A stretch of DNA of 32,000 bases from Vibrio vulnificus CMCP6 (GCF_000039765.1 NC_004460.2:300001-332000); one strand, 5' to 3'. Shown: positions 4,708-25,646, numbered from the stretch's first letter. The notes: a model not told the origin generated them from the letters alone. Translations and numbers: made by a program.

Positions 4708-6848
4708 TTAGAACTCGTATTTTACACTGATGTTGTAGTTTCTCTCTGCTTGAGTTAAATCTCGACTCAGTTCTTTTTCCCCTCGAATATCGTTCCATAG
4801 GTAATATTTTTCGTTGGTCAAGTTCATGATTCCAGCTCTTACGGTAACGTCTTGTGTGGGTTTAAAGTAAGCCGTTAAGTCAATTACGGTTGCTGATGGT
4901 AGCTCTACTTGATTTGCCGTTCCGCCATTATTTCCGTCTAAATTAATGTGACTATTGGACTTTTTAGCAGTGTAATTCACTTTTATGCTTGTACCCCATA
5001 GAGTATTGGGAGCATCATAATTTACCGCACCCACTGCATTCCAAGGATTGACACTATTCAAGGGATTCCCTTCGCCATCTTCACCTACAGTGTATGCAGC
5101 TACAAAACGGGTAGTCATACCTAAAGGTAGATTAGCAATTCTGTTCAAATCCAAAGTGTTGGAGACTTCAATCCCTTTAATGGTCGCTTCACTGATATTG
5201 ACATAGGTGTATTCCGTCAAACCACCGCCTCGCGTTGAAGTTTGCTCAATGAAATCAGTGTAGTCACTATAGTAGAGAGCGATTTCACTGGTTGATGCGA
5301 TGGTATTATGACGATAACCTAGCTCATATGAGAGACTTTTTTCAGACTCGAGATTAGGGTTGGGGCGGTTAGTGTAACCATGTCCCGGATTGTCATAGGT
5401 ATAGTACAACTCATTGAACGAAGGCGCGCGAAAACCTTGGCTAATTTGTGTAAACAGTGTGCCTTCTTGCGCTACCTTGTAAGTGGCACCTAGTCGACCT
5501 GTGAATGCTGAATCACTGAATTTTATGAAGCTTTCATCTACAGTGTCTGACGGATCTGTAGAGAAATAGTCATAACGTACACCAGGAGTTAAAACTAACT
5601 TGTCGTTCAGTACGGAGATTTCATCTTGGAAGAATAGACCAAAACTCATTTCCTTCGCATCTGGCGTGTATACATAGATTTTATCCGGAGTGTTCGGATC
5701 AGAGTTAAATTCACGATTCGTGTTACTGATGCGACTTGTCTTATAAGACAAACCATAAACTAAATAGTGCGTTTCTAACTCCTTATCGAACTGGGTTTCT
5801 AACTCAATTTTATTTTCAGCATATTGATAGTCTTTTTTCTGCTGATTATCTCCATTGGGTGGAACCCTAGGTGGGACTCCTGCACTTGCTTCTTTGAAAC
5901 GGTTTGTAAGTCCGTTTTCTTCTTTATCTGTCCAAGTTAGTCTAGATGTGATGGAATCAGTGATGGTTGTATCAACAAGCCAAATGTGCTTTAGACCAAG
6001 ACGATTTTGCTTGGTTGTATCCTCAGAGTTAAAGTTTTTGTAAGAGGAGCTTGCAATATCTGAGTCATTTTGGTTGTAAATCACTTCTCCAAGAAATTCT
6101 AAACGATGGTCATCGCTCAGCTGAGATTGCAATTTGATCAACAGATCATTCTTAACGTAGTCTTGAGACTCAACTGAATAGTCGTCATACGGTGCTTTTG
6201 AAAAGTTTTGGAGTTCTTTGCCATCTCTACGAGTGTAGGCGACCAAGGCTTCAACGTTATCAAAACGTTTTGCTACGGCTACATGTTCACTAAACGATTT
6301 ATCTTCGGATGAGTATGATAGTTTGGCCTGCCCCCCGAATACTTTGCCATTTTTAAGAAAGTCAGCTGGATCTTTCGTTTCGAATGCCACAACACCGCCA
6401 ATCGCATCGCTTCCATGCAAGCTAGATGCTGCGCCTTTTACGATCTCGACACTTTTAAGCATATCCGGATCAACCGAGACTGCGCTTGAATTGATAAAAG
6501 AGTAGGGACCGCCATCAAACACGCCTGGCTGAGATGCTCCGTCAACCAAAATTTTAACTCTTTTACCCTCCATTCCCCTAATATTGATACTTTGAACACC
6601 CTTGGCGCCTGTGTACTATTGATAGTTACCCCTGGTGTATATTCAAAAACATCATTGAGATCTTTGGCCATCTTACTTTCAAGATCTTTATCAGAGATAA
6701 CGGTTACTGATGCAGCGACTGCGTCCATAGTTTGATTCGTACGTGTTGCAGAAACAACAACTTCATCAAATAAACCAGCATCTTGTGCTTGTACTGGCGT
6801 AGCGAGAGCGAATAGTATTGAGGCTGAAAGGAACGTTCTGTTGTACAT
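4708..6848 (-). pseudogene. TonB-dependent heme/hemoglobin outer-membrane receptor, disrupted by a frameshift near 6610-6611
   Basis: Track ORFs 6438..6848 and 4708..6573 are one gene. The first carries the signal peptide, the TonB box DEVVVSATR and the start of the plug; the second carries the barrel ending ..NISVKYEF. The reading ..TPGVTINST continues as GAKGVQSINIRGMEGKRVKILVDG in another frame (net 1-nt loss or 2-nt gain). A FRAP box (5422-5433) and an NPNL box (5350-5361) with an intervening His form the heme-receptor signature. Confidence 0.75.
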
Positions 6849-13641: not shown

Positions 13642-13667
13642 AAAGGAGCTTTCAAAGCTCCTTTTTT
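13642..13667 (+). terminator. Intrinsic terminator after yciH
   Basis: AAAGGAGCTT / AAGCTCCTTT stem followed by a T-run. Confidence 0.65.
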
Positions 13668-13952: not shown

Positions 13953-13980
13953 ATTTAACATAACGTACATAATGCGCACC
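13953..13980 (-). other. dif: dif chromosome dimer-resolution site (XerC arm - 6-bp centre - XerD arm)
   Basis: The minus strand reads GGTGCGCATTA-TGTACG-TTATGTTAAAT. As I remember them, E. coli dif is GGTGCGCATAATGTATATTATGTTAAAT and V. cholerae dif1 is AGTGCGCATTATGTATGTTATGTTAAAT, so the XerD arm is identical and the XerC arm differs by 1 nt. Confidence 0.85.
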
Positions 13981-14228
13981 AAAGCATTGGTTTTTAACAT
14001 TTCAAATATTTATCGAAATCCCGCAAATTTTATCCAGCTAAAACAATCACATAATACAACATATTGCATTGTAAAACCGTTTCGTTATCTCAAGTTATTA
14101 AGGCTGCACTATGAAAAGAAATGAACAAAATAATTCTTTTCGTCATTTGATAGCCCTTGGCAATCAAAACCCCTCGCAGCAATCGAAAATAACCATTAAT
14201 AACGCTGATAATTTGAGAGGTTTATCAC

Positions 14229-14651
14229 ATGGATTTTGAAGCCTTTAACGTCTTATTCTGGCGAGTGTTTCCAAGTATCAAAGCTGGCGCGGAATACTTC
14301 CACGTTCAACCCGCGACCGTTCGCCGCTGGCTTTCGGGCTCGATACCCATCAACCCAATGGCTGAAAAGCTGGTAATCATCAAATCCCTTGGCTATTTAC
14401 CTAATGATATTCGCTGGCGTGGCTTTCGTATTGATGAAGCCCGCGCGGTACTCATTACCCCTAGCGGGCGCGAGTTTTCGCCCAAAGAGTTGGAAGCCTT
14501 CGCCTATCAAAAAGACGAGTATCAACACTTTCTTGAGCAATACGAACGGCCACAAAGCCCCAAATATTACCCCGCAAAAGAGAACATTTTACCCTTTAAA
14601 GGCGGTCGCCGGATGACTGCCGCGCCTTGGATACCAAGCAAATTGAAGTAA
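14229..14651 (+). CDS. Phage HTH protein, DUF3653-like; candidate Xer activation factor (XafT-like)
   Basis: 140 aa. An HTH-like segment (AGAEYFHVQPATVRRWLSG) is followed by RWRGFRIDEARAVLITPSGREFSPKELEAF. It is the only + strand gene at this end, ~250 bp from dif. The family call is from memory only. Confidence 0.45.
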   Translation: MDFEAFNVLFWRVFPSIKAGAEYFHVQPATVRRWLSGSIPINPMAEKLVIIKSLGYLPNDIRWRGFRIDEARAVLITPSGREFSPKELEAFAYQKDEYQHFLEQYERPQSPKYYPAKENILPFKGGRRMTAAPWIPSKLK

Positions 14652-14653
14652 CA

Positions 14654-14681
14654 AAAAGGCCGCAATTAAGCGGCCTTTTTT
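14654..14681. terminator. Bidirectional intrinsic terminator
   Basis: AAAAGGCCGC / GCGGCCTTTT hairpin flanked by A- and T-runs, between convergent genes. Confidence 0.65.
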
Positions 14682-14703
14682 CATCCAGTTTTTCAAGTAA
14701 CTA

Positions 14704-15024
14704 TCAACCCCAAGCTCTCAATGCTTCATCATTCAATAACTCTGCGTGGTTTCCTATGATTGTTAAATGAATATGGGCTGCTGTGCTGTCTAATTGAACT
14801 CCATTATCACCAACCTTTAGAGCCCAAGACTCTAAATCGAACTTGTTTTTTAATCGGTGGATAAACAGATAAGCTGTACCTGGCTGAATGTATTGTGTGC
14901 TGTACGTTACATCAACAAAGCCTTTGGTATTAAGTTCATCAACGTTACTTTTTATAAAATATTCTATTTCGTTTTGAATCTCTTCAGCTTGACCCAAAAA
15001 AAAGTCTGTGGCGTTTCTTAACAT
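14704..15024 (-). CDS. Hypothetical 106-aa protein; low-GC stand-alone cargo gene
   Basis: The ATG at 15024 has AAGGAG 7 nt upstream (the track start at 15045 lacks an SD). It is bracketed by terminators at 14654-14681 and 15095-15127. I recognise no family. Confidence 0.6.
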   Translation of the reverse strand: MLRNATDFFLGQAEEIQNEIEYFIKSNVDELNTKGFVDVTYSTQYIQPGTAYLFIHRLKNKFDLESWALKVGDNGVQLDSTAAHIHLTIIGNHAELLNDEALRAWG

Positions 15025-15094
15025 AGCATTACTCCTTTTAATCATCGCTATAAGCTTAGATATGGGGGTCTTAGCAATGAAAGCAACTGCATAA

Positions 15095-15127
15095 AGAAAA
15101 AAACCGCAATTATGCGGTTTTTTTTTC
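15095..15127. terminator. Intrinsic terminator ending the long minus-strand structural operon
   Basis: AAACCGCA-ATTA-TGCGGTTT hairpin with an A-run on one side and a T-run on the other. It overlaps the stop codon of the last operon gene. Confidence 0.6.
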
Positions 15128-15256
15128 TAGCTCTGTGATTCGGCTATCCAGCTTTTCGAGTGTGAGCTTTATCCAAGCTATATCGACACGCAGCGCAACC
15201 ACCGTTGCAATACTGGACGCCGCACCCGTCACCACGGCAATTATGATTGTTTCCAT
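15110..15256 (-). CDS. 48-aa membrane protein (TM + short coiled-coil tail)
   Basis: METIIIAVVTGAASSIATVVALRVDIAWIKLTLEKLDSRITELEKKTA. The start is uncertain (the track gives 15322). It overlaps the upstream gene. Confidence 0.4.
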   Translation of the reverse strand: METIIIAVVTGAASSIATVVALRVDIAWIKLTLEKLDSRITELEKKTA

Positions 15257-15456
15257 TCCTTGCGCACCGTTTCCCACAAACCCAACATAAGGGGAACGGT
15301 TGTACCAATCAATCCGCCCCATTGAATACCCGCTTCGCTCACGCTGGCGGTGATCAATTCAGGGCGACCTATCGCCAGCGTTGCCCCCGCTGCGACCAGT
15401 GCCAAGCCTTTTTTGGTTGAAGGCTCTTTTAGTCGCTCTTTAATCCATTTTTCCAT
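15241..15456 (-). CDS. 71-aa two-TM membrane protein
   Basis: Hydrophobic segments GLALVAAGATLAIG and GGLIGTTVPLMLGLW. Tightly packed within the operon. Confidence 0.55.
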   Translation of the reverse strand: MEKWIKERLKEPSTKKGLALVAAGATLAIGRPELITASVSEAGIQWGGLIGTTVPLMLGLWETVRKEWKQS

Positions 15457-15459
15457 GGT

Positions 15460-15822
15460 TCACCTATCCATTAACTGATTTGTTATAGCCACATTGACCA
15501 GCGCGTGATATTGCGGTTTAAGCTGACCGCCACGCTTGCCAAAGAGTTCTTTTAAATACGGTTGATATTGGGCCACTTTCCACAAGGTAAAATCGGCCTC
15601 TGGCGTTAATCGCTTTTCATCGTCCAGATAGAAATCGCGAATCATGAGCGGGGCCAGTTCAACGGGTTCCCACCCGTTAAACTTGGCTAAAAAATCGCTC
15701 AATACCTTGCCCGCCGTTTGGGTATTGTCTGCCGTCCATTTATCAAGTGACGCGGTCACACTGCCCCGCATCGCCCAGACTGCCACGGCAACCCCCATCA
15801 ACCACCACGCCGCGCGGCTCAT
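15460..15822 (-). CDS. 120-aa protein with an N-terminal membrane anchor/signal
   Basis: The in-frame ATG at 15822 gives MSRAAWWLMGVAVAVWAMRG... It overlaps (ATGA) the stop of an upstream micro-ORF. The 41 extra N-terminal residues of the track version are W/C/H-rich and overlap other genes. Confidence 0.5.
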   Translation of the reverse strand: MSRAAWWLMGVAVAVWAMRGSVTASLDKWTADNTQTAGKVLSDFLAKFNGWEPVELAPLMIRDFYLDDEKRLTPEADFTLWKVAQYQPYLKELFGKRGGQLKPQYHALVNVAITNQLMDR

Positions 15823-15908
15823 AGCTTGCCCGCTTGATTTAACTTGCTTACCACCATTGCACCAAGCACCGTGCCAATGACACTCACCGCAATATTGATT
15901 GCTATCAT
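15819..15908 (-). CDS. 29-aa TM micro-ORF (MIAINIAVSVIGTVLGAMVVSKLNQAGKL)
   Basis: It fills the gap between the 161-aa gene stop (15917) and the 15822 start and is ATGA-coupled to the downstream gene. It has no strong SD. Confidence 0.35.
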   Translation of the reverse strand: MIAINIAVSVIGTVLGAMVVSKLNQAGKL

Positions 15909-15916
15909 TTTGCCAT

Positions 15917-16402
15917 TCATGCCAGCGCCACCCCTTGGCGGGCATCGTCTAGGGTGTACCACCCGCGCCCGACTTCCATTACCGACATGGCATAGACAAT
16001 GCTTGCCAACAATGCGTTATCAGAAAGGTTAACTTGCGCATCCGGTGATACGCCCACTTGCGCCGCGACAAATTCCGCATAGTTGTCACTTTTGTTTTCA
16101 TTGCTTGGCGCAAAGCGGTGAATCAACTCACGAATGGAGTTCAAGCCGTGTTTGTTTTGATATGTTCGCAGCGTTCGAGCGCCAGCGCGAAAGCCGTACT
16201 TTGGCGCGCTAAAGGTTTCGAAACGCTTATCCACCGAGGGCGTTACCTTGCCTAACCAGTTATTCGAGCGGTTTTGCTCGATGTTTAACGGGTTATTGGC
16301 ACGGACGCCGCGCGGCTTAGTGAGATCAACTAAGTTTGATTTGCTGTTTTTCACGATTACCCCCAAAGCCAGCAAAGATAAAACAACCACCGCAACTTTC
16401 AT
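15917..16402 (-). CDS. 161-aa membrane-anchored protein, possible cell-wall (muralytic) enzyme
   Basis: N-terminal TM (VAVVVLSLLALGVIV), then RANNPLNIEQ..W.G, which resembles the NNPGNI-type motif I associate with small phage/virion peptidoglycan-acting proteins. This is a weak assignment from memory. Confidence 0.4.
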   Translation of the reverse strand: MKVAVVVLSLLALGVIVKNSKSNLVDLTKPRGVRANNPLNIEQNRSNNWLGKVTPSVDKRFETFSAPKYGFRAGARTLRTYQNKHGLNSIRELIHRFAPSNENKSDNYAEFVAAQVGVSPDAQVNLSDNALLASIVYAMSVMEVGRGWYTLDDARQGVALA

Positions 16403-16405
16403 TGC

Positions 16406-17038
16406 TTATTCACCTTGTGGTAATGACTTGTAACTTTCCGGTAAATCGTTTTCCATCGCTTCGCCATAATAGAAAATGGTTCCCGAAATTCTTGTGCATG
16501 TAAAACCAGACGCCGCGCTTGCGATTATTTTCGTTGGTTCGCTTAGCATAGGGTGAGGGTCTGCCGGATTGCCCCACGTCATAAGGCCAAGCGAAGTAAA
16601 ACCGCTACATTTCAAACGCGCGCCCCCGCCTACATCATCCAAGCGTGGCAACTTTTGAAGCTCTCCCAATTGCGCCGAAGCCCAATACAATGCACCAGCA
16701 CGGGCCACGCTTGGGTCGCCTGTTACCCAAACATCCAGATTTACAAAGAGGTTTAGAACGGGCTCATTCACATACGGCGATGAACCTTCATAATTTTTTG
16801 ACAACTTGGCCAACGATATTTTTTTCATTTCGTTACTTGAGCCAGTGCCTACAATCAGCGATTCCATACCCTGCGAAATTAGAATTGCTTCCGCAACTTC
16901 CAACTCTCCGCTTGCCCCTACTTTAAAGGGCAGCACTACAGGCCCGCCGCCCCCGACGTTTTCAAGCGCCTTTTCGACAGATTCGGCCAACGCTTTTAGC
17001 TTGTTTTCCGTGTTTCCATTGCCTAAATCAAAAGCCAT
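16406..17038 (-). CDS. 210-aa soluble structural protein (possible vertex/receptor-binding component)
   Basis: It is coupled to the upstream spike-like gene (TAA-AGC-ATG with a GGAGA SD). It has no TM, and I recognise no family. Confidence 0.45.
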   Translation of the reverse strand: MAFDLGNGNTENKLKALAESVEKALENVGGGGPVVLPFKVGASGELEVAEAILISQGMESLIVGTGSSNEMKKISLAKLSKNYEGSSPYVNEPVLNLFVNLDVWVTGDPSVARAGALYWASAQLGELQKLPRLDDVGGGARLKCSGFTSLGLMTWGNPADPHPMLSEPTKIIASAASGFTCTRISGTIFYYGEAMENDLPESYKSLPQGE

Positions 17039-17041
17039 GCT

Positions 17042-17749
17042 TTAAATCTCCAATACCGCAATGCTGTTTGCTGCATCGCCTGTTAACTGAATTTCGGCGG
17101 TTGTCTCAAGCTCCAGCTTTTCGCCCGCCTCTAACGGATATGCGCCCGCCACCGTCACCGCCGCCGTGTTACCGCTTAGCGCTTTAATGGTGATTTTCTT
17201 GCGCCCTGCGTTGGCCGGAATGGTGTAAGGCATCGCATGAACGCCCGCCGCCAGTGAAGCCGATTTTTTCAGCTCGACCGCTGGCAAGCTGGACACACCG
17301 ACCGATTGGCCCGCCGCGATGGTCATTGCTGGAATACTCGAAACGTCTAGCGATTGGCCCGCCGCCAGTTGCATTTCTGGCAAGCTGGATACCTTAACCG
17401 TTTGATTTGCTGCCAACTCGACCGCTGGCAAGCTCGATACGTCCACCGTTGGCAATGCGGAAACTTCCACCGCTGGCAGCTCTGACACGGCTACCGTGTC
17501 ACGTTGTGGCGGCACGTATTCACCAAAGCCAACTTTTAGCTTTACATCCCCTTCAACGCCGCGATTTTCGACCGTCACCACCCCCGCCAAGCGTTCGCTT
17601 TTGACTTGCGCCCCTTGCGTTAACACGTAGTAACCGCCGCTTTGCGTAGTGATAAGCAGCTCACCCGCTGCTTTTTCCACGAAAAGAAAGTCACCAATTG
17701 CGGTAAAGTTATCGCGCGCACCTGTTAACATTCGTTTTTCAAAGCTCAT
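17042..17749 (-). CDS. 235-aa repeat-containing protein, putative spike/fibre
   Basis: The central third consists of VSxLPxxx 8-mers and 16-mers, flanked by beta-rich N- and C-terminal domains. Confidence 0.5.
   Translation of the reverse strand: MSFEKRMLTGARDNFTAIGDFLFVEKAAGELLITTQSGGYYVLTQGAQVKSERLAGVVTVENRGVEGDVKLKVGFGEYVPPQRDTVAVSELPAVEVSALPTVDVSSLPAVELAANQTVKVSSLPEMQLAAGQSLDVSSIPAMTIAAGQSVGVSSLPAVELKKSASLAAGVHAMPYTIPANAGRKKITIKALSGNTAAVTVAGAYPLEAGEKLELETTAEIQLTGDAANSIAVLEI
17270..17488 (-). repeat. In-frame tandem repeat (8/16-residue units) inside the spike-like gene
   Basis: VSELPAVE VSALPTVD VSSLPAVELAANQTVK VSSLPEMQLAAGQSLD VSSIPAMTIAAGQSVG VSSLPAVELKK. At DNA level, ACCGCTGGCAAGCT(G/C)GA recurs. 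Confidence 0.75.
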
Positions 17750-17753
17750 TTGA

Positions 17754-18224
17754 TTAACTCCGTGTCATTAGGTACGCAATGGAGATAGCCGCGAACGCGC
17801 CAATGGCAAGCTTTTTGGTTAACTCCGCATCTTCACGCTGTTCATTGGCTCCGTTGTCTTGTTTGAACTTCGCCAACTCCATCACCGCATTGAGATTTTC
17901 CGCATTTTGCGCGGCCTGACTGCCTGCAAGCCCCGCCATCATCGACAAGTTTTCCGAGTTGGTCGCGCTGTAGGTTTTGAGCGCATCCTTTGAAAAATCC
18001 GTCACACTCTTAACGGCATCCCCCGCCACACTTCCAAGCGTGGTCATGGACAACTCCGCAAGACTTCCCGCCGCCTCAATCGCACCGTGGTCAGTTGCGG
18101 TTACGTTGAGCGTTGAGTTGTTAATCCCACTAATCGCGGTTCCAAGGTTGTCGCCGCTAATGGCGTTTTGACCTGAGTTATTACTCGTGGTCGTGGTGTT
18201 CTTAGAACTTGATTTACCACCCAT
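17754..18224 (-). CDS. 156-aa S/T/N/A-rich protein with a C-terminal TM anchor
   Basis: Low-complexity N-terminus (SSKNTTTTSNNSGQN) and a C-terminal LAIGAFAAISIAYLM. Confidence 0.55.
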   Translation of the reverse strand: MGGKSSSKNTTTTSNNSGQNAISGDNLGTAISGINNSTLNVTATDHGAIEAAGSLAELSMTTLGSVAGDAVKSVTDFSKDALKTYSATNSENLSMMAGLAGSQAAQNAENLNAVMELAKFKQDNGANEQREDAELTKKLAIGAFAAISIAYLMTRS

Positions 18225-18228
18225 ATTT

Positions 18229-18600
18229 TTAAACTCGCATTGTCAGCGCGGTCACTTCTTCGCTTGGCTGCTTCTCGTTGGTGTGCAAAGGCTTTACCAA
18301 CCGAGCCAGCGCGGGAAAATAGGTTTCAGCGCTGATACTGTTTAAACCCAATCGGCGCACAACGGGCGCGAGCTCTTGCATGGCTTTCACGACGCCAACC
18401 CCCGACACTCCCCACAAAAAATAGGAATCGCCGACAATCTCCCCCGCAATCGTGACGTCATACCCTTCACCGTGTATTTGGTAGAGGCTGACATTGCCCG
18501 CCGACACTTCACCCTTTAAGGCTTCGAAGTCTTGCGGGCATTTTCTAAACGCCACTTTGAGCCGTTCCAGCGCGCCCGCTGGCTCCGCTAACTGAATCAT
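18229..18600 (-). CDS. 123-aa soluble hypothetical protein
   Basis: No TM. It overlaps the upstream gene by 4 nt. Function unknown. Confidence 0.55.
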   Translation of the reverse strand: MIQLAEPAGALERLKVAFRKCPQDFEALKGEVSAGNVSLYQIHGEGYDVTIAGEIVGDSYFLWGVSGVGVVKAMQELAPVVRRLGLNSISAETYFPALARLVKPLHTNEKQPSEEVTALTMRV

Positions 18601-18806
18601 TTTCGATTCATCATCATGAACGCCAACGCCAAGACCACGCCGCCAATCAATAACGGACTTACCCCCGTAGGGCTTCCCATATTAATCGCGCCGACACTTT
18701 GGCCGCTGTTGTTGGTACTGGTTGCGGTTGACGGGCCAGCATCGCCGCCACTAATTGGCATTGAACCGCTATTCGTCAACCCGCCGCCGATAAGAGAACC
18801 CAACAT
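18597..18806 (-). CDS. 69-aa Gly-rich membrane protein
   Basis: C-terminal TM (LLIGGVVLALAFMMM). Its start abuts the stop of the 50-aa ORF. Confidence 0.55.
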   Translation of the reverse strand: MLGSLIGGGLTNSGSMPISGGDAGPSTATSTNNSGQSVGAINMGSPTGVSPLLIGGVVLALAFMMMNRK

Positions 18807-18959
18807 TTACGCCCCCTTCACTGCGTGTTTATAAACCAGATAACCGCCGCCCACTAAAGCGGCCCCCATGACTAACTTTTTTGTTGTGCTTCCGGTGAAA
18901 TAGCCCGCACCAAAGCCCGCCGCCGCACCGATAAGTGGATATAAAATAAAAGGCATCAT
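18807..18959 (-). CDS. 50-aa two-TM Gly-rich micro-protein
   Basis: MMPFILYPLIGAAAGFGAGYFTGSTTKKLVMGAALVGGGYLVYKHAVKGA. It has a TAAGGGGGA-ATG junction with the upstream gene. It is below the ORF-track cutoff. Confidence 0.5.
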   Translation of the reverse strand: MMPFILYPLIGAAAGFGAGYFTGSTTKKLVMGAALVGGGYLVYKHAVKGA

Positions 18960-18965
18960 TCCCCC

Positions 18966-19259
18966 TTACTTACTTTTCAATGCGACAATCAAACCAATGA
19001 GCAACAAGCCACCCACGCCATACATGAGATATTTCTCATTCATGGATGCCGCCGGATTGCTTGGCGGCACTGGTGCGCCATTTGGCTGCACGGGTTGTTG
19101 CTCTGCTGGCTTGCGGTTTTCTTCCGGCGCGGCACTTTCCGCCTTTTGCGTGTTGGTCACTTTTGGGTCGAGTTTTCCGCTTACGTAATTGCCCGCCGCA
19201 TCCGTGACCGTCCCTGCAAAATTGGTTAGGTTTTCGCCCAGTGAATCCCAAAGAGACAT
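18966..19259 (-). CDS. 97-aa membrane protein (Pro-rich middle, C-terminal TM)
   Basis: C-terminal YGVGGLLLIGLIVAL. It has a TAAGGGGGCAAA-ATG junction with the capsid gene. Confidence 0.55.
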   Translation of the reverse strand: MSLWDSLGENLTNFAGTVTDAAGNYVSGKLDPKVTNTQKAESAAPEENRKPAEQQPVQPNGAPVPPSNPAASMNEKYLMYGVGGLLLIGLIVALKSK

Positions 19260-19268
19260 TTTGCCCCC

Positions 19269-20111
19269 TTACGCCGTGGCGGTCGGTAGCGCTTTGACTT
19301 GCTCGACTGCTTCAAACACAACCGGAACCGCGCCCGCTTGTGATTTTTCCAGCTCAAACGCGAGTTGCTGGCTTGCTGCCGTGTTCAACACACCGTCAGC
19401 ACCGAAGCCGTAACGGGTAAAGTCCACACTAAACCAGCCCGCATTTTGCTCTTGACCGCAAGCGGCAAGGTCGTAAGCGTTGTCTAGTTTGTTGGCGTTG
19501 TATTCTTCGATGTTGTCACGCAACACACGCACACGCTCAACCGACTCATCCATAAAATGCGCACGTTTTAGGTTTAAGAACGGGCTACGCTCTGCAAAGT
19601 CAAACGGGATACGGCCCGCCGCTGGCGCGTTCCAAGTCAGCTCAATGATGCGCGGCAAGTAGAAACGCTCGCTTTGTGCTGGCAGCACATGAGCACGGGC
19701 GCGGATACTTGGCACCGCTGGCGCGCCTTCGCTTGGCGTTTGTTTGAGTTGCACGTAAATAAACCAGATTTCGCCTTGCAGCGTCACGAGATCAGTTTGA
19801 CGAACACCAACTTTTGTACGGTATTCTGATTCACCAAAATCAATGACGTATCGGCCTTGCTCGTTGTAGGTCTTTTTGTGCTTTTGGATGTTGACGAACG
19901 TTTTACCGCTGGCGCTCATAATTGGACGGCCATTCAACTGGATTTCAATTCGTTCAATATCTTCCGGATTGGTGATATTTGTGACCAACTCAATGCTGTG
20001 ATAAGTCGGGCCCGTTACCAAACGTAGATTTGCACGTTGGCCCCAGCCAACGCCTTCCATTGGGTCTAGCTCTTTTGCGCGTGGTGCAAATGGTGTGCTG
20101 ATAATTTCCAT
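19269..20111 (-). CDS. Putative major capsid protein (PM2 P2-like, double jelly-roll candidate)
   Basis: 280 aa from the ATG at 20111 (GGGG 6 nt upstream; the track uses GTG 20117). The size, beta-rich composition and position between the ATPase and the membrane-protein cluster fit the corticovirus layout. The assignment is not verified by alignment. Confidence 0.5.
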   Translation of the reverse strand: MEIISTPFAPRAKELDPMEGVGWGQRANLRLVTGPTYHSIELVTNITNPEDIERIEIQLNGRPIMSASGKTFVNIQKHKKTYNEQGRYVIDFGESEYRTKVGVRQTDLVTLQGEIWFIYVQLKQTPSEGAPAVPSIRARAHVLPAQSERFYLPRIIELTWNAPAAGRIPFDFAERSPFLNLKRAHFMDESVERVRVLRDNIEEYNANKLDNAYDLAACGQEQNAGWFSVDFTRYGFGADGVLNTAASQQLAFELEKSQAGAVPVVFEAVEQVKALPTATA

Positions 20112-20124
20112 ACTCACCCCCGCC

Positions 20125-20235
20125 TTAACCGATCACGTCTTCGACTGCATCAACGTTGTTTGATGCCCAAACCACACCCGCCGCGATTAGCGCGCTAAGT
20201 CCGAGCAAAATTAAATTGCCTTTTGTTAATTTCAT
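20125..20235 (-). CDS. 36-aa TM micro-protein
   Basis: MKLTKGNLILLGLSALIAAGVVWASNNVDAVEDVIG. GGAG SD present. The stop lies 13 nt before the capsid ATG. Confidence 0.45.
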   Translation of the reverse strand: MKLTKGNLILLGLSALIAAGVVWASNNVDAVEDVIG

Positions 20236-20252
20236 TGCTTTACGCTCCAAAT

Positions 20253-20281
20253 AAAAAAACCGCTGTTCATTAGCGGTTTTT
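20253..20281 (-). terminator. Intrinsic terminator-like hairpin between the ATPase and capsid modules
   Basis: The minus strand reads AAAACCGCT-AATGAAC-AGCGGTTTTTTT. It lies only 17 nt upstream of the next start codon. Confidence 0.5.
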
Positions 20282-20341
20282 ATCTTTGCCCGATATTCAC
20301 AACGGTTTGTAAATGCGGATTTAGAATCCTTGATTCTATTT

Positions 20342-20357
20342 TGTGAACTTATTCACA
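20342..20357. promoter_or_regulatory. CRP-like palindrome TGTGA-N6-TCACA
   Basis: TTTTGTGAACTTATTCACATTT has both core half-sites perfect. It sits immediately after the ATPase stop codon. Confidence 0.4.
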
Positions 20358-20358
20358 T

Positions 20359-21027
20359 TTACCAGCGTATTAGCCCCGCTTCGTACCCTTTGCCGTTCTG
20401 GTGCAAGTAGTGAAGCGGTTGTAAATCATTGATAACCGCCGAAGGAATGCCCGTCATTTTTTCTAAATACACGGCACTTGCTCCGGTCTTTTGCATCATG
20501 ACGTACATGTGTTGACAGTTATCAATAATGGTTTTTGAAACTTCTTGCCCACGCTGGAAAAGGTTTATTGTGTGGATGCCATACGAACGCCCCAAGCGCA
20601 ACAACTTGCCATGATAGCCCGTCGCTTTGCCCGCCGTTTCGCTGTGCTCTGCAACTTCCTCACAAACCACTTTCAACGGTTTGACATGATGCCCGTCACC
20701 ACACCCCCAAACGATTTGACAAAACTTGTCAAAATCGGCGGGTTTTGTGTCGCCTTTTTTTAAATCCGGTTGCCACGCAATTTTAAATCCTTGCTTGGTT
20801 TTTCGGCCTGCAACCACCGCTTGAGCAAAGCGGCTAAACGAGTGATACACGCGCACCACTCGCCCCAGCAACTCACCGTCATATTCTCGCTTTGGGTCAA
20901 AAATCACGACTTGGTCAGTCGCTTTTACTAAGCGTTTTTTGACAAGCGAGCTTTTGCCACACCCCGACATTCCCACAACGGCGGTATGCTCATTTTTCAA
21001 TGCGTTGTTATTGCGTCGCGGCTGCAT
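20359..21027 (-). CDS. Genome-packaging ATPase candidate (PM2 P9 / PRD1 P9-like size class)
   Basis: 222 aa from the ATG at 21027 (AGGGGG 5 nt upstream). Walker A is GMSGCGKSS, followed by a hydrophobic strand plus Asp (QVVIFDP). It has no TM, unlike Zot/pI of filamentous phages. Confidence 0.65.
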   Translation of the reverse strand: MQPRRNNNALKNEHTAVVGMSGCGKSSLVKKRLVKATDQVVIFDPKREYDGELLGRVVRVYHSFSRFAQAVVAGRKTKQGFKIAWQPDLKKGDTKPADFDKFCQIVWGCGDGHHVKPLKVVCEEVAEHSETAGKATGYHGKLLRLGRSYGIHTINLFQRGQEVSKTIIDNCQHMYVMMQKTGASAVYLEKMTGIPSAVINDLQPLHYLHQNGKGYEAGLIRW

Positions 21028-21499
21028 GAGCACCCCCTTGCGCCTTTGCCGCCTGAATGATTGCGGCGCGTTTTAGCGCTTCTTCTTTCTGAATTTCTTG
21101 CATCATGGCGTATTTGCCAAAGCCAATAATTGACACGGTCGCTAGCAAGGTGAGTTCAGGCCCATACTCTGCCAACCACGGCGGCGGCTCCGCACCGTAT
21201 TTGATCAACACGGGGGCGATTGCTCCGGTTAGTTGGGTTTCTTCTTGCTCATCGAATGACAAACGTTTGTCTTTGGCTTTTAGAATCCCATTGACAAAAC
21301 CCACCCCTTTTGCCGCAAATGGCAGCACCGCCTCAAGCGTTGCGGCTTGCTGCTTTAGCGCTGCTTCCCGTTGCGCCTTATCTTCAATCGTGATTTCGGC
21401 GTCTTCTTCCATTTCCAATTGATTTAGAAAATCCTTTTCCTCATCGGTGTATTCTTTTTCTAAATCCGTTGCCTGTTCGTTTAGTCGTTCTTCATCCAT
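21008..21499 (-). CDS. 163-aa protein: acidic coiled-coil N-terminus, hydrophobic C-terminal half
   Basis: MDEERLNEQATDLEKEYTDEEKDF... followed by ..LTLLATVSIIGFGKYAM. It has an 8-nt overlap with the upstream gene. Confidence 0.55.
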   Translation of the reverse strand: MDEERLNEQATDLEKEYTDEEKDFLNQLEMEEDAEITIEDKAQREAALKQQAATLEAVLPFAAKGVGFVNGILKAKDKRLSFDEQEETQLTGAIAPVLIKYGAEPPPWLAEYGPELTLLATVSIIGFGKYAMMQEIQKEEALKRAAIIQAAKAQGGAHAAATQ

Positions 21500-21848
21500 T
21501 GTTTGCCCCTAGCACTTTGGCGGTTACATTTCCCAACAAAAAGCAAAAGCCACCAATGAGAAACTTTGCGGCGTTGCTGTTTGCTGACGTTGTTGTTTTG
21601 TTGTTTTGCGGTTCCGGTTCCGGTACGGGCTCTGTCACTGGCTCCGGCGTTGGTTTAAGCATTTGCTCGACTTCTTCCAACGGCTTGTAAGTGGCAAAAT
21701 ACGCTTGAATATCTTCACCCGTTCGACAATCCGGCCCACACTTACACCGAGCCCTTAAAAAGCGCGCGCGCTTGCCTTGCCCCTGAATGATTTTTTTAGG
21801 TGTTTTGCATTTCGAGCAAGGGAGATAACCTAAAATTTCTTCATCCAT
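21492..21848 (-). CDS. 118-aa protein: N-terminal Cys4 zinc-ribbon-like motif, Pro/Glu linker, C-terminal TM
   Basis: CSKC...(17 aa)...CKCGPDC, then PTPEPVTEPVPEPEP, then FLIGGFCFLLGNV. Confidence 0.55.
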   Translation of the reverse strand: MDEEILGYLPCSKCKTPKKIIQGQGKRARFLRARCKCGPDCRTGEDIQAYFATYKPLEEVEQMLKPTPEPVTEPVPEPEPQNNKTTTSANSNAAKFLIGGFCFLLGNVTAKVLGANNG

Positions 21849-22071
21849 TGCTCACCTCTTGCAGCTTTTTCACTTCTTGTTTCAAGGTTTCGATTTCTTC
21901 ATTCTGCACTTGCAGCAAAACGATGATTTTTCGCCCAAAGGAATTGAAAAAATCCCGAATCGGGTTTAGAAACTTTCCAAAAATCGGGTTGCCTACGTGC
22001 GCGCCGATTTCCTCTACCGCGCCCGCCATTTCTTTTTTAATTTCGCCGAGTAATAAAGCCTTTTTATTCAT
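21841..22071 (-). CDS. 76-aa hypothetical protein
   Basis: AAGGAAG SD upstream. Coiled-coil-like C-terminus (LQVQNEEIETLKQEVKKLQE). Confidence 0.5.
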   Translation of the reverse strand: MNKKALLLGEIKKEMAGAVEEIGAHVGNPIFGKFLNPIRDFFNSFGRKIIVLLQVQNEEIETLKQEVKKLQEVSNG

Positions 22072-22102
22072 TTCTAGCCACTTCCTTTTATTTCAATTGC
22101 TC

Positions 22103-24091
22103 TTAGTGATACAAAGCTCCCGCGCGCTGATACAAATCCCAAAACGCCGAACGCTCCGCCTCGATAACTTCCGGCCTGATGTTGTAGGGCTCAAACGGCT
22201 CTGCCTTGACCGACTCCCACCAAGCTTGATTGTCTAAAAATTGCTTATATTGCATTTGATATTGCTCTTGCGCCGCTTCGCGCAAATCTTCCATTTCTAT
22301 ATCGCTGTAAATCGGTTTCATCGACCAGCCACGCGCACCCGCCGCCCATTTCAAAAACTGGTTAACCCTACGCTCTGCGTTTTTCTCAAACGTGATTGAA
22401 AAGCGGTTATTGGCGCTGACATGTAGCCCCGCTGCTTTTGTTGCTGCTCTTGCGTTTTTCAAACCGTTTTCAATTCGCTTGATTTTGGTTTGCAATTTCG
22501 TTTGTAAATCCACATCACCTTTTGCTTTGGCGATTGCTGCCGCTTCAATGCTTTTTTCTTTGGCTTGCTCATAGCGCTTGATGCTGCGCTTAATTGGCGC
22601 TTTCCATTGGTCGAGCTTGTAGCCTAACTCGCTGATAATGCCCGCCATGTTATCCGCTTCGAAACTCAGCAAGGTTTCCCACTTTGGCGCACGGCTACAC
22701 GCTGCCATGTTGTAACGATTGCCCCGAATAAGCCCTTGATTGGCGTTTTCTCCTTTGGCTGCATAGCCCACCGCTTTAATGATGTAAGTCCCTGCCGCCT
22801 CTGGCTTTTTGATGCGCTCAACATGCGCAAAGCCATTACCCCAAAGGCTCTCAATTTTTCCAGCCCACGCACTAAAAAGCGCTTGCGGCATTTCCCAATC
22901 CATCAACAAGTGAACGTGCGGATTCGGCTCACCGTCCTCATTGGCTGGACACTCCGCCACCCAAAGGTAATGAAAGTCCGATTTATCCGGCAATACGCTT
23001 GCTTTGACCGCTGGCACTGGACAAAACAAACGCCCGCTTTCGCTGTCGCGCTCTGTCACGTAGGCCGGAAAGCCGCGCTTTCTCATCTTTTTGAGGCCAT
23101 TAATAAAACGCGATACCTCCGCGCCTATCGTGGTGTGCATGTTCACCACTTCCCAAACCTTTTCAGGCTTGGCAAAAAGTGGCGTATATGGCCCCGCAAT
23201 TTCGCCGCTTTCGTTCATGGCCTTGATGTTGCGGATTTTTCCCTTGTACCACTCAAACGCGCTATATGGCCCCGCCACCTCTGACACACACACGCCAAAA
23301 TTTTGCTTGAACCCAACAGGCGAAAACAAAAGCCCCTCATCGGTGAGCGCGGAACCGTCAGCCACACGGCGGCGGCGTTCTTCATCAAACGTCAGCGTGA
23401 TGAACGTTTTGAACCCGCCATGCTTCACCGCGACATACGCGCCGGACTCAAAAATATTTTTCACCGCGCGGGCGGTTAATTTTTCCGTGAAGCGGTCGCC
23501 GCTTTGCTGCTCCGGTGCATTGCTGGCTGGCGTTTCAATCACTTGCTGAATTCGGTATTGCTGCGACCAATCGCGCTTTTGCAATTGCACCTTTACCAGT
23601 GGCTTATCTGCCACCAATGACCGCTTTTTATTGCTGTTTAGTGCAGTGCCGCGCGATACCGCCGAAAATGACGCGCTGTAGTGCGCGCTGTGATATTTTT
23701 CAGGATTTAATACTAGGGGCGCTTTTATCGACTTTCTCAGCGTTGCCAAGCGTTGGCGGAAGCGTTTAGAGGCTTCATAACCCACCTTTCCCGCTGTCCG
23801 ACTTTTGCGCCCTTTGACTAGCCTATTATCTCCGGCACTTCGTGCCGCCGCTTCGCGCAGGTGTCCCGCGATCGTTTTAATGCGTAACGGGGTGAGTTGC
23901 TCTGCATCTTTTAAGATGGTTTGTTGCTGTTCATTCCACTGAGAAAAATCGGATGCAAAAAAACCGCTACGAATAGCGGTAAGGTTCTTTCTTGCCTTAT
24001 CGGATTGCCGAAGCGCTCCAACTGCGTATAGAACTGTGTTTTTATCCAGTGGCGCAAATTGGCTTGCGCTAAACTTTGCTATTTGGTTCAT
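22103..24091 (-). CDS. Rolling-circle replication initiator (HUH endonuclease superfamily Rep)
   Basis: 662 aa. Motif 1-like FITLTF, motif 2 (HUH) PHVHLLMDW and motif 3 with Tyr residues TYIIKAVGYAAKG occur in the correct order. The size is close to PM2 P12 as I recall it. Confidence 0.75.
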   Translation of the reverse strand: MNQIAKFSASQFAPLDKNTVLYAVGALRQSDKARKNLTAIRSGFFASDFSQWNEQQQTILKDAEQLTPLRIKTIAGHLREAAARSAGDNRLVKGRKSRTAGKVGYEASKRFRQRLATLRKSIKAPLVLNPEKYHSAHYSASFSAVSRGTALNSNKKRSLVADKPLVKVQLQKRDWSQQYRIQQVIETPASNAPEQQSGDRFTEKLTARAVKNIFESGAYVAVKHGGFKTFITLTFDEERRRRVADGSALTDEGLLFSPVGFKQNFGVCVSEVAGPYSAFEWYKGKIRNIKAMNESGEIAGPYTPLFAKPEKVWEVVNMHTTIGAEVSRFINGLKKMRKRGFPAYVTERDSESGRLFCPVPAVKASVLPDKSDFHYLWVAECPANEDGEPNPHVHLLMDWEMPQALFSAWAGKIESLWGNGFAHVERIKKPEAAGTYIIKAVGYAAKGENANQGLIRGNRYNMAACSRAPKWETLLSFEADNMAGIISELGYKLDQWKAPIKRSIKRYEQAKEKSIEAAAIAKAKGDVDLQTKLQTKIKRIENGLKNARAATKAAGLHVSANNRFSITFEKNAERRVNQFLKWAAGARGWSMKPIYSDIEMEDLREAAQEQYQMQYKQFLDNQAWWESVKAEPFEPYNIRPEVIEAERSAFWDLYQRAGALYH

Positions 24092-24286
24092 CTATGCAAA
24101 CACCATAAAGCGGCGGTTTTTGTCTATCTCAATCACCGCCGTATTACCTGCCATTGATTTAACTGCGTTTCCGGTGTGATTCTCACACTCTGCAATTGCG
24201 CGAAAGAAATTGCGCGAAGGCTTGAACGGCAACGGCTCACCCGTTGGTAAACATTTGTTGTTATCCCAGATTTCAACCGTTGCCAT
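24092..24286 (-). CDS. 64-aa hypothetical protein
   Basis: Its stop TAG directly abuts the Rep ATG. Confidence 0.45.
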   Translation of the reverse strand: MATVEIWDNNKCLPTGEPLPFKPSRNFFRAIAECENHTGNAVKSMAGNTAVIEIDKNRRFMVFA

Positions 24287-24290
24287 ATGA

Positions 24291-24467
24291 TCACCCCACT
24301 GACGCCCAGTTAAAAATAAAGGTCATGCAACCAACCACTGCCCAAGCCGACACAATTGCATTTCCTAAATCACTAAAACTAAAGATAAAAGGTGTTGGGT
24401 TGTAATCACGCCCCATCAAGAAACAAAAAAAGCCAATAAGGAACACCCCTAGAATTGAAAGGCTCAT
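24291..24467 (-). CDS. 58-aa two-TM micro-protein
   Basis: MSLSILGVFLIGFFCFLMGRDYNPTPFIFSFSDLGNAIVSAWAVVGCMTFIFNWASVG. ATGA overlap with the upstream 177-aa gene. It is below the ORF-track cutoff. Confidence 0.45.
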   Translation of the reverse strand: MSLSILGVFLIGFFCFLMGRDYNPTPFIFSFSDLGNAIVSAWAVVGCMTFIFNWASVG

Positions 24468-24997
24468 TGAACTCTCTCCCCAAGCTCTCTCAATCCACCT
24501 CTAGGCGAATTCAAATCCTCTAATTGGTCATTCCATGCAAAGAAACCTTTGCATTTTGGATGCGACACTAACGAATCCGCCGGATATTTCTCGATAACTT
24601 CTACCTGTTCACCCGCCTTAATAATTAAGTCAGTATGAATATGATGATCACATCTAAGAATTTTCTTAACTGCATGAGAAGATTCCGCGCCATCAACGGC
24701 CAATGCCTCCGGCGCTTCCTCTTGCTTGCGGATTTGGTTTCTATTTCGCTGTTCAATGAGCTTTAATCTCATTTTTAAATTCGTTTTTAGATTTGCGGCA
24801 TCTTCAAATCTAAGTGTCCCCCACCGATTTTTAATAACACGTTCAATCAGTGTGCAAAGCTTTACTGCTCGTACTGGCGATAATATTGACTGTTGAATCT
24901 CATCCAACACAATAAAAGCGCCATTAAGCGAACCGCGCTTAAATGCATCTTCCGTTTCAACAACTAGCTTTCTAAATTCTTTTGATGATTTAATCAT
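24464..24997 (-). CDS. 177-aa hypothetical early protein
   Basis: Low-GC ORF with no TM. I recognise no family. Confidence 0.55.
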   Translation of the reverse strand: MIKSSKEFRKLVVETEDAFKRGSLNGAFIVLDEIQQSILSPVRAVKLCTLIERVIKNRWGTLRFEDAANLKTNLKMRLKLIEQRNRNQIRKQEEAPEALAVDGAESSHAVKKILRCDHHIHTDLIIKAGEQVEVIEKYPADSLVSHPKCKGFFAWNDQLEDLNSPRGGLRELGERVQ

Positions 24998-24998
24998 G

Positions 24999-25205
24999 CT
25001 ACACCCCCACGCTTTGAACGTTTGATCGGCGTATCATGGCAAGCTGATAAGCGCGCTTAAATTCCGCCTGACCTTTGCGAGAAAAGCGATAATCTTTGCC
25101 GCCGGACTTCTTACACTGGTAGCCGTTGGGGAAATATTTCTGTTTGAGGTTTTCGAGAATGTTGAGCCCTGTATCAGTGGGCTGATGTGAATGTGTTCTT
25201 TCCAT
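24999..25205 (-). CDS. 68-aa basic protein, first gene of the leftward operon (Cro/regulator-like position)
   Basis: GGAGG lies 7 nt upstream of the ATG at 25205. I prefer it over the overlapping 96-aa ORF 25034..25324. Confidence 0.5.
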   Translation of the reverse strand: MERTHSHQPTDTGLNILENLKQKYFPNGYQCKKSGGKDYRFSRKGQAEFKRAYQLAMIRRSNVQSVGV

Positions 25206-25346
25206 GTTCTAGCCTCCGCAAGCCGTTTCACATTTGTTTCGCTAATACGATATGGCAAGTTTTTTGTAGGCGCAATTAGCTTGCGGTAGTGAAACGAACA
25301 AAATGATCGCCTATGATTTAACAAATTGCGGACGGAGATAAACTCA

Positions 25347-25613
25347 ATGATGAACTACACAAATGCACTTTTAGACCGCCTAAAAGCCAAGCTAGAACTG
25401 GGCTCAGACTATCAATTAGCTAAAGTTTTAGAGGTTGGTACTAGTAGAATCAGCAACTACCGCAACGGGCGCAGTGTTCTAGATTGGAATATAGCGTTTA
25501 AAATCGCCGATTTGTTAGAAGAAGATGATCAAAAAGTCGTCTTTGGATTGCTTGAGGATAAATACTCAAACCCTCGCCTAATCAATGCCTTACAAGAGGG
25601 CGCGCCCCATTAG
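25347..25613 (+). CDS. HTH transcriptional regulator, repressor-like, divergent from the phage operon
   Basis: An HTH-like segment (SDYQLAKVLEVGTSRISNYRNGRS) is present. The ATG at 25347 has GGAG 9 nt upstream (the track uses TTG 25326). The stop lies 5 nt before the right att site. Confidence 0.6.
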   Translation: MMNYTNALLDRLKAKLELGSDYQLAKVLEVGTSRISNYRNGRSVLDWNIAFKIADLLEEDDQKVVFGLLEDKYSNPRLINALQEGAPH

Positions 25614-25618
25614 CGCCC

Positions 25619-25646
25619 ATTTACCACATCGTACATAATGCGCACT
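25619..25646 (-). other. dif-like hybrid site (intact XerC arm and centre, degenerate XerD arm)
   Basis: The minus strand reads AGTGCGCATTA-TGTACG-ATGTGGTAAAT. The XerD arm has 3/11 mismatches to TTATGTTAAAT. It is in the same orientation as dif at 13953-13980. Confidence 0.75.

Follow-up and report, generated by a model that had tools for sequence, protein, structure and literature searches.

A DUF3653 gene beside the chromosome 2 dif site of Vibrio vulnificus CMCP6 as a candidate Xer activation factor of a PM2-like prophage

TLCphi integrates through an attachment site (attP) that lacks a proper XerD arm, and its XafT is a DUF3653 protein that activates XerD independently of FtsK (PMC6744903, PMC9226527). 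Both points had been stated in the original prediction for the locus described here, and they agree with these papers. According to Miele et al. (PMC9226527), FtsK-driven integration requires TTATG, XafT tolerates most arms with G5 or T1, and non-canonical arms of the G5/T1 kind shield the integrated element from FtsK-driven excision. XafV, the ORF136 product of VGJphi-type inoviruses, was shown experimentally to be an Xer activator and supports only XerC-first reactions. DUF3653 genes cluster beside dif in many species (Midonet et al., 2019). Here we analyzed a 32,000-nucleotide stretch of Vibrio vulnificus CMCP6 (NC_004460.2:300001-332000), hereafter called the window, which contains a prophage related to phages PM2 and NO16 at dif. 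Its terminal gene p15, a homolog of PM2 gene XV, encodes a DUF3653 protein that is probably a phage-encoded Xer activation factor.

Parts of this picture are already in the literature. Krupovic and Bamford (2007) listed this very prophage, reported that genes XV and XVI flank it, and described the genome as 'linearized between gene XV and XVI' (PMC1950889). For NO16-like phages, Kalatzis et al. (2023) suggested that XerCD carries out integration, and they treated the p15 gene, under its S-adenosylhomocysteine (SAH) hydrolase label, as a family marker. Ma and Zhang (2025) described 'dif-type DJR prophages' (DJR, double-jelly-roll) with p16 and p15 as terminal genes and p15 as a xafT homolog (PMC12715192). 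The original prediction would link a XafT-type module to a double-stranded DNA (dsDNA) phage; the homology and the context hold, and the link itself had been published (PMC12715192). Our computational finding adds little because the prophage (2007) and the xafT homology (2025) were both in print: it is correct, and it is not new.

The open reading frame (ORF) had been predicted to encode 140 amino acids on the strand opposite to the phage operons, about 250 bp from dif. We confirmed this arrangement, with a gap of 249 bp between dif and the start codon. The ORF begins with ATG, GAGAGG lies just upstream, and the helix-turn-helix (HTH)-like stretch and the second peptide quoted in the prediction were both found in the translation. 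By exact look-up, the product is the same 140-residue protein as AAO07248.1 of V. vulnificus CMCP6; Ddl (AAO07245) and the HTH protein encoded at the other end of the prophage (AAO07269) were identified in the same way. The protein consists of an XRE-type HTH (residues 1–55), one DUF3653 unit (residues 55–122) and a disordered tail carrying a family-invariant PF-[RK]-GGRR...PW motif. XRE-type HTH followed by DUF3653 in one polypeptide is the arrangement of the XafT class.

Profile searches placed p15 in DUF3653. Against Pfam DUF3653 (PF12375; gathering cut-off, 22.4 bits), p15 scored 66 bits (E 3.3e-18), with residues 55–122 covering the full profile (positions 1–66 of 66). With the same profile, XafT scored 85 bits over two units, NO16 GP07 57 and PG21 32.1, while PM2 P15 (21.6) and XafV (20.3) fell just under the cut-off. 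NCBIfam NF040522, 'VC1465 family Xer recombination activation factor', matched p15 with 47.9 bits (E 1.2e-12; residues 19–108 on model positions 14–101 of 111) against a curated cut-off of 70 bits, which makes p15 a clear relative on nearly the whole model, yet places it outside the curated VC1465 family. The other scores were 181.7 bits for XafT, 47.5 for NO16 GP07, 46.4 for PG21, 41.8 for XafV and 31.2 for PM2 P15. Thus, p15 outscored XafV, an experimentally proven Xer activator. In PHROGs, p15 was assigned to phrog_8213 (E 5e-68).

For the pairwise alignment suggested in the prediction, the XafT sequence (VC1465 homolog) was recovered from the TLC-Kn1 record HM134800 by relaxed tblastn. BLASTP aligned p15 with TLCphi XafT at 37.4 bits and 32% identity over 82 amino acids (residues 16–89 against 25–101), a match that extends from the HTH through the first DUF3653 unit. 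With a 30-sequence p15-family profile as the query, hhalign gave a probability of 95.4% for XafT (E 1.7e-8), 80% for VGJphi ORF136 (XafV) and 35% for PM2 gp a (P15). BLASTP of p15 against PM2 P15 gave no hit, and these two proteins are linked by profiles only. W34, W63, L75, P78 and G80 are invariant in p15, NO16 GP07, PG21, PM2 P15, XafV and XafT alike.

The AlphaFold (AF2) model of p15 had a mean predicted local distance difference test (pLDDT) score of 72. Residues 1–55 formed four helices with pLDDT >90 and superposed at 1.4–2 Å on XRE-type HTH proteins, namely Aca10, Aca2, HigA2 and phage repressors; residues 60–105 formed a beta-hairpin and a helix. The family is narrow. The 102 homologs of p15 are all about 140 amino acids long and all come from Vibrio or Enterovibrio, and a family-profile search of 1.84 billion representatives returned only 136 relatives at E <= 1e-3. 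An 'S-adenosylhomocysteine hydrolase' label is carried by p15 and its homologs in GenBank, UniRef and phage records. When the AdoHcyase domain was sought in p15, Pfam gave only DUF3653 and a weak HTH_17, and NCBIfam only VC1465_fam. We regard the label as a propagated misannotation because no such domain is detectable in p15.

We then compared the two ends of the prophage, both of which read XerD arm, central region and XerC arm on the plus strand. The site on the p15 side is composed of the canonical host XerD arm ATTTAACATAA, the 6-bp centre CGTACA and the XerC arm TAATGCGCACC, and is the functional dif (attR), a perfect dif site. No chance match to this 28-bp site is expected, as no shuffle of the window matched. 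Its reverse complement, GGTGCGCATTA TGTACG TTATGTTAAAT, is identical at 26 of 28 positions to V. cholerae dif1 (HM134800, TLC-Kn1 junction, L002:1529-1556). Over the window (1–32000), the cumulative GC skew reaches its maximum near 14 kb, at dif, being near zero or positive before this point and negative after it, which fits a replication (chromosome) terminus. The site at the far end (attL) comprises the phage XerD' arm ATTTACCACAT (ATGTGGTAAAT in the conventional orientation), CGTACA and the host XerC arm TAATGCGCACT. As the prediction of a degenerate XerD arm required, attL differs from dif at 3 of the 11 positions of this arm, and otherwise only at the last base of the XerC arm.

The XerC arm of attR terminates in ...CACC, like attP of NO16, and that of attL in ...CACT, as do 10 of 10 far-end junctions of related prophages; the central region CGTACA is identical at both sites. 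This pair is the product that would be expected from recombination between attP (D'-centre-C') and dif (D-centre-C), which should regenerate a functional dif on the p15 side and leave a D'/C junction on the p16 side. Because of the site geometry at both junctions, the circular genome is read as p16, attP (5 nt past the p16 stop codon, which lies at the same distance ahead of attL), a spacer of about 250 bp and p15, with p16 thus upstream of both the site and p15. Exactly the same order is seen in the NO16 virion genome. No integrase, recombinase or resolvase domain was found in element ORFs of at least 90 amino acids, in agreement with the prediction. Like xafT in TLC, p15 adjoins dif on the side of the XerC arm. 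As in the XafT class, a dif-like attP thus neighbours the gene, and the element that carries both has no integrase of its own.

Three variants of the attP XerD arm occur in the phage group (ATGTGGTAAAT, AGCTGGTAAAT and AAAGGGTTAAT; canonical, TTATGTTAAAT). The window carries ATGTGGTAAAT, and the NO16 counterpart has ...AAAC. All three have lost the inner TTAT and retained G5 and most of the outer half. The XerC arm of attP is canonical throughout the group, and the 6-bp centre is one that is common among Vibrio dif sites (TATACA for NO16 and its relatives, CGTACA at both window junctions). XafT-type sites are likewise marked by the absence of the inner TTATG, a retained G5 or T1, a canonical XerC arm and a centre matching dif. 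Because TTAT is lost and G5 is kept, the arm pattern matches that predicted for an Xaf-dependent, excision-resistant attP by the rule of PMC9226527. Since the 6-bp centre matches dif and the XerC arm is canonical, both steps of the exchange could be completed.

The genomic context was compared in 17 species genomes and 39 viral contigs, across which the placement of p15 recurs. In related loci, p15 is followed by a lysis-spike-major capsid protein (MCP)-ATPase-Rep series on the opposite strand, and in most of them a dif-like site lies about 275 bp upstream of p15 in the same orientation. The terminal gene order p16-p15 is repeated in relatives. A single-sequence p16 scan of the viral contigs gave no match, and an alignment query of the same contigs detected 10 loci.

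From the homology, architecture, context, absence of an integrase and site pattern described above, we infer that p15 belongs to the functional class of phage-encoded Xer activation factors, an assignment that we hold to be probable. The mechanism we propose is as follows. The prophage would have been integrated at chromosome 2 dif by the host XerC/XerD. p15 would be made from the circular phage genome, would contact XerD, probably as an HTH-mediated dimer, and would help to build the synapsis of dif with an attP whose XerD arm presumably binds XerD poorly, thereby licensing recombination without FtsK. Strand exchange may occur with XerD first and XerC second, as for TLCphi, and would restore a perfect dif beside p15. 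The remaining junction, in which ATGTG replaces TTATG as the inner arm, would be expected to withstand FtsK-driven excision and so give a stable prophage. We lean towards XerD-first rather than XerC-first, as the site features suit that order and p15 resembles XafT more closely. The biology of related phages favours the assignment as well: PM2 gene XV, though unneeded for lytic growth, persists at prophage ends (PMC1950889), NO16 GP06 and GP07 are more strongly expressed when conditions favour lysogeny (PMC13552765), and XafT can no longer be detected once TLC has integrated (PMC9226527). Ma and Zhang arrived at the xafT homology independently (PMC12715192).

Several observations weigh against this assignment, some of them taken up again with the alternatives below. 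p15 has one DUF3653 unit, whereas the XafT class has two and a C-terminal region; residues ~108–194 of XafT are without a p15 counterpart. p15 does not reach the curated cut-off of NF040522 (47.9 vs 70 bits). The DUF3653 region of the p15 model has moderate confidence (pLDDT 64–77), fold searches of PDB and BFVD returned XRE-HTH matches for the N-terminus only and left the DUF3653 part unmatched, and a profile search of PDB sequences gave no match; DUF3653 has no solved structure. At its innermost position, the XerD arm of attP carries A, whereas T is favoured there. The TLC reaction, which is XerD-first, cannot be driven by XafV, whose single-unit layout p15 shares. The pathway could be XerC-first because a protein of this architecture supports only XerC-first reactions. 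DUF3653 membership alone does not prove an Xer function, as the DUF3653 protein PSB15 shows: in Xanthomonas inoviruses it binds the packaging signal, and integration does not need it. Finally, PM2 P15 is described as a transcriptional repressor (PMC1950889).

The last two points would suit a p15 that acts only as a transcriptional regulator of the lysis-lysogeny switch, as the partner of the repressor-like p16, with integration proceeding without a phage protein on basal XerC activity as for CTXphi. The first 55 residues fold with high confidence as an XRE-type HTH whose best structural matches are Aca10, Aca2, HigA2 and phage repressors, P15 and P16 of PM2 are both described as early-operon repressors (PMC1950889), and the NO16 authors proposed an Aca-like role for GP07 from its HTH (PMC13552765). 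However, XafT and XafV carry the same HTH yet activate Xer. A regulator alone also leaves unexplained why p15 lies so strictly next to attP, why loss of the inner arm is conserved with G5 kept, and why PM2 can grow lytically without gene XV, which is kept at prophage ends (PMC1950889); in published work, an attP with a poor XerD arm was integrated very inefficiently without a Xaf factor. We consider a purely regulatory p15 rather unlikely. p15 is likely also to regulate transcription by way of its HTH, and such a second role would be compatible with the Xer role.

p15 might instead act like XafV, enhancing an XerC-catalyzed Holliday junction that is resolved by replication, so that XerD catalysis would be unneeded. 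The two proteins are of similar length (140 vs 136 amino acids) with one DUF3653 unit in both, a p16/ORF154-like gene precedes both with attP between the genes, the hhalign probability for XafV is 80%, and XafV homologs are reported to be widespread in Vibrionaceae. Nevertheless, p15 is nearer to XafT in sequence, and the VGJ attP, with its 7-bp non-dif centre and two non-canonical arms, differs from the 6-bp dif centre and canonical XerC arm found here and is inverted relative to the p16-to-p15 direction. This route therefore seems doubtful to us. The DUF3653 hairpin could also serve as a DNA-binding element for another phage step, such as recognition of a packaging or replication signal. PSB15 binds packaging-signal DNA via WxGF and TP motifs whose equivalents are invariant here, but PM2-type phages package dsDNA by a HerA/FtsK ATPase, PM2 can do without gene XV, and p15 lies in the lysogeny module, not in a late operon; we rate such a role as very improbable. 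The assignment of p15 as an Xer activation factor remains our preferred one.

The spacer between dif and p15 is about 248 bp in most relatives, with near-constant length and poorly conserved sequence. A terminator scan of the spacer (13981–14228) found none. A search for a p15 promoter in the same interval gave one weak consensus match (14183–14212), no better than shuffles; we rejected it as p15's own promoter, as it is too close to the ribosome-binding site and shuffles score equally. A conserved TTAACA box is located 11–13 nt beyond the XerC arm, inside the phage, in the window, at L001:3319-3327 and in other loci. It reads WTTTAACAT in the window (TTTTAACAT) and the NO16 group, where it resembles an outer XerD arm, and is the palindrome TTGTTAACAA in a sister subfamily. 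The box at 13992 was also tried as part of a second full dif-like site and rejected, since no XerC-like arm follows it. Together with the length-conserved spacer, it might form an accessory site, either an extra XerD half-site or a p15/p16 binding site, that aids synapsis.

The gene order further raises the possibility, which we put forward only tentatively and think less probable than not by a wide measure, that integration switches the Xer activator off, so that p15 would be produced by circular genomes alone. Once attP had recombined, p15 would be disconnected from the p16 promoter and would lie behind the host yciH terminator and dif, which would give directionality without an excisionase. 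p15 could be separated from a p16 promoter in this way because neither a terminator nor a convincing promoter was found between the two genes in the circle. The PM2 p16-p15 unit is a single leftward operon.

The features of the window are listed in Table 1. The 11.7 kb between the two sites has a GC content of about 50%, compared with about 42% in the flanks. All structural and replication genes are on the minus strand, and the plus strand carries only p15 and the HTH gene at 25347–25613. A PM2-type MCP, with P2_N and P2_C domains, occurs together with a HerA/FtsK-type packaging ATPase, as in DJR prophages; this bears out the predicted dsDNA icosahedral phage. The terminal p16 and p15, the dif-like junctions and the lack of an integrase correspond to the definition of dif-type DJR prophages (PMC12715192). 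We thus classify the element as a PM2/NO16-like dsDNA icosahedral DJR prophage at the chromosome 2 dif of V. vulnificus CMCP6.

Table 1 Features of the locus, in window coordinates.
Feature	Position	Strand	Description
Host yciH terminator	13642-13664
dif / attR	13953-13980		ATTTAACATAA-CGTACA-TAATGCGCACC
Prophage element	13981-25646		11.7 kb, PM2/NO16-like double-jelly-roll (DJR)
Spacer, XerC arm to p15	13981-14228	+	AT-rich, GC 32%
TTAACA box	13992-14000	+	TTTTAACAT, 11 nt past XerC arm
p15 / gene XV homolog	14229-14651	+	140 aa; XRE-type HTH + DUF3653; candidate Xer activation factor
Hairpin	14655-14684		GC-rich with T/A runs, between convergent p15 and cargo genes
Cargo ORF	14704-15045	-	113 aa, GC 36%, in ~410-bp cassette between hairpin copies
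Lysis / peptidoglycan-hydrolase-like gene	15917-16402	-	phrog_873, E 6.8e-50
Putative spike gene	17042-17749	-	phrog_12829
Major capsid protein (MCP)	19269-20117	-	PM2 coat protein P2 domains: P2_N 150.6, P2_C 133.2 bits
HerA/FtsK-type packaging ATPase	20359-21033	-	DUF87/HerA, phrog_2666
Rolling-circle replication initiation protein	22103-24091	-	REP_ORF2-G2P 31.3 bits
p16 / gene XVI homolog	25347-25613	+	88-aa HTH repressor-like, AAO07269.1
attL	25619-25646		ATTTACCACAT-CGTACA-TAATGCGCACT

A 41-nt terminator-like hairpin repeat is present in two copies (14641–14681 and 15085–15125). The hairpin at 14655–14684 is the left copy and bounds the shared attP-p15 module; the terminator scan did not call it, and it is a putative terminator. 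The cargo ORF and the small membrane ORFs had no match in Pfam, PHROGs, PADLOC or NCBIfam. The position of the cargo cassette is that of a published hypervariable region (PMC12715192); prophage L025 (96% identical) lacks the cassette and has one hairpin only, and in prophage L024 (98% identical) the cassette is replaced by different DNA. In the putative spike gene, direct repeats at 17270–17496 with 24-, 48- and 96-nt spacing encode 8-residue VSSLPAVE-like units, and the gene is 30–38% identical across related prophages. In the host flank, two overlapping minus-strand ORFs (6438–6848 and 4708–6573) resemble the N-terminal and main parts of one TonB-dependent receptor, which suggests that this outer-membrane receptor is split by a frameshift or is a pseudogene.

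Another prophage (L023:9726-10453) shares with window positions 13955–14681, at 98% identity, a module made up of the dif-proximal site, the spacer, p15 and the hairpin. Outside the module the L023 prophage diverges, with an MCP 30% and a lysis gene 61% identical. The 98% identity breaks at the hairpin, and the comparison suggests that the lysogeny module moves between DJR phage backbones. Many Vibrio loci (L027, L030, L038, L052-L054, L057, L059 and L060) are arrays, in which a canonical dif is followed by about 9 kb with a p16-like gene by dif, a hybrid site with a 7-bp centre, p15 and the DJR prophage. In these arrays, a VGJ-type inovirus seems to have entered at a later time, using the dif that had been restored next to p15. 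The canonical dif at -8 to -10 kb was also considered as p15's true partner and rejected, as these loci are arrays with a later VGJ-type inovirus insertion.

If p15 is an Xer activation factor, the Xaf strategy, otherwise found in filamentous phages and their satellites, would reach icosahedral, membrane-containing dsDNA phages. DJR phages of this kind reportedly rank with the most common prophages of marine Vibrio. Such a function would explain how the element integrates without an integrase and persists despite FtsK-driven recombination at dif. It would also correct three conflicting labels that p15 bears in databases and papers, namely SAH hydrolase, Aca-like protein and transcriptional regulator.

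Among the known systems, PSB15 shares with p15 the DUF3653 hairpin with WxGF and TP motifs; unlike in p15, its DUF3653 unit is N-terminal and no HTH is present in the same protein. PM2 P15 (gene XV, ORF a) is syntenic with p15, its gene closing the leftward p16-p15 operon, is borderline for DUF3653 and is labelled DUF3653 in RefSeq, whereas PM2 differs from the window in having just a 17-bp half dif-like motif. NO16 GP07 is 62% identical to p15 and has been annotated both as SAH hydrolase and as Aca-like. NO16 and the prophage in the window, which both fall in the published class of dif-type DJR prophages, have the p16-attP-p15 layout and the XerD' arm TTTACCACAT in common, and differ in the central region (TATACA vs CGTACA) and in their cargo and replication modules.

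XafV, with 136 amino acids, resembles p15 in combining an HTH with one DUF3653-like unit, and is less similar to p15 than XafT is. In VGJphi, as in the window, a p16-like gene (ORF154) precedes xafV and attP lies between the two. The VGJ attP, ACTTCGCATTA-TGTCGGC-TTATGGTAAAA, has a 7-bp centre unlike dif and non-canonical bases in both arms, and it is inverted relative to the direction from the p16-like to the xaf-like gene as compared with DJR phages. The window differs from this type in having a 6-bp centre identical at both junctions and a canonical XerC arm.

TLCphi is a satellite of a filamentous phage, whereas the window element is an icosahedral dsDNA phage. XafT has 194 amino acids and a C-terminal extension, compared with 140 and a different conserved tail in p15; xafT reads toward attP and overlaps it, whereas p15 reads away from it and starts at a distance of 249 bp. 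The TLC XerD arm, TAGAGAAAGTG, has 8 differences from dif, compared with 3 in the window arm. The likenesses between the two systems lie in the protein, the element and the site. XafT, like p15, has an XRE-type HTH followed by DUF3653 and is collinear with it over XafT residues 26–107. Both elements are integrase-less, encode an HUH replication protein and carry the gene on the XerC-arm side of a dif-like attP, whose XerD arm is non-canonical and whose central region matches dif. In both, integration regenerates dif beside the gene, xafT in TLCphi and p15 in the window.

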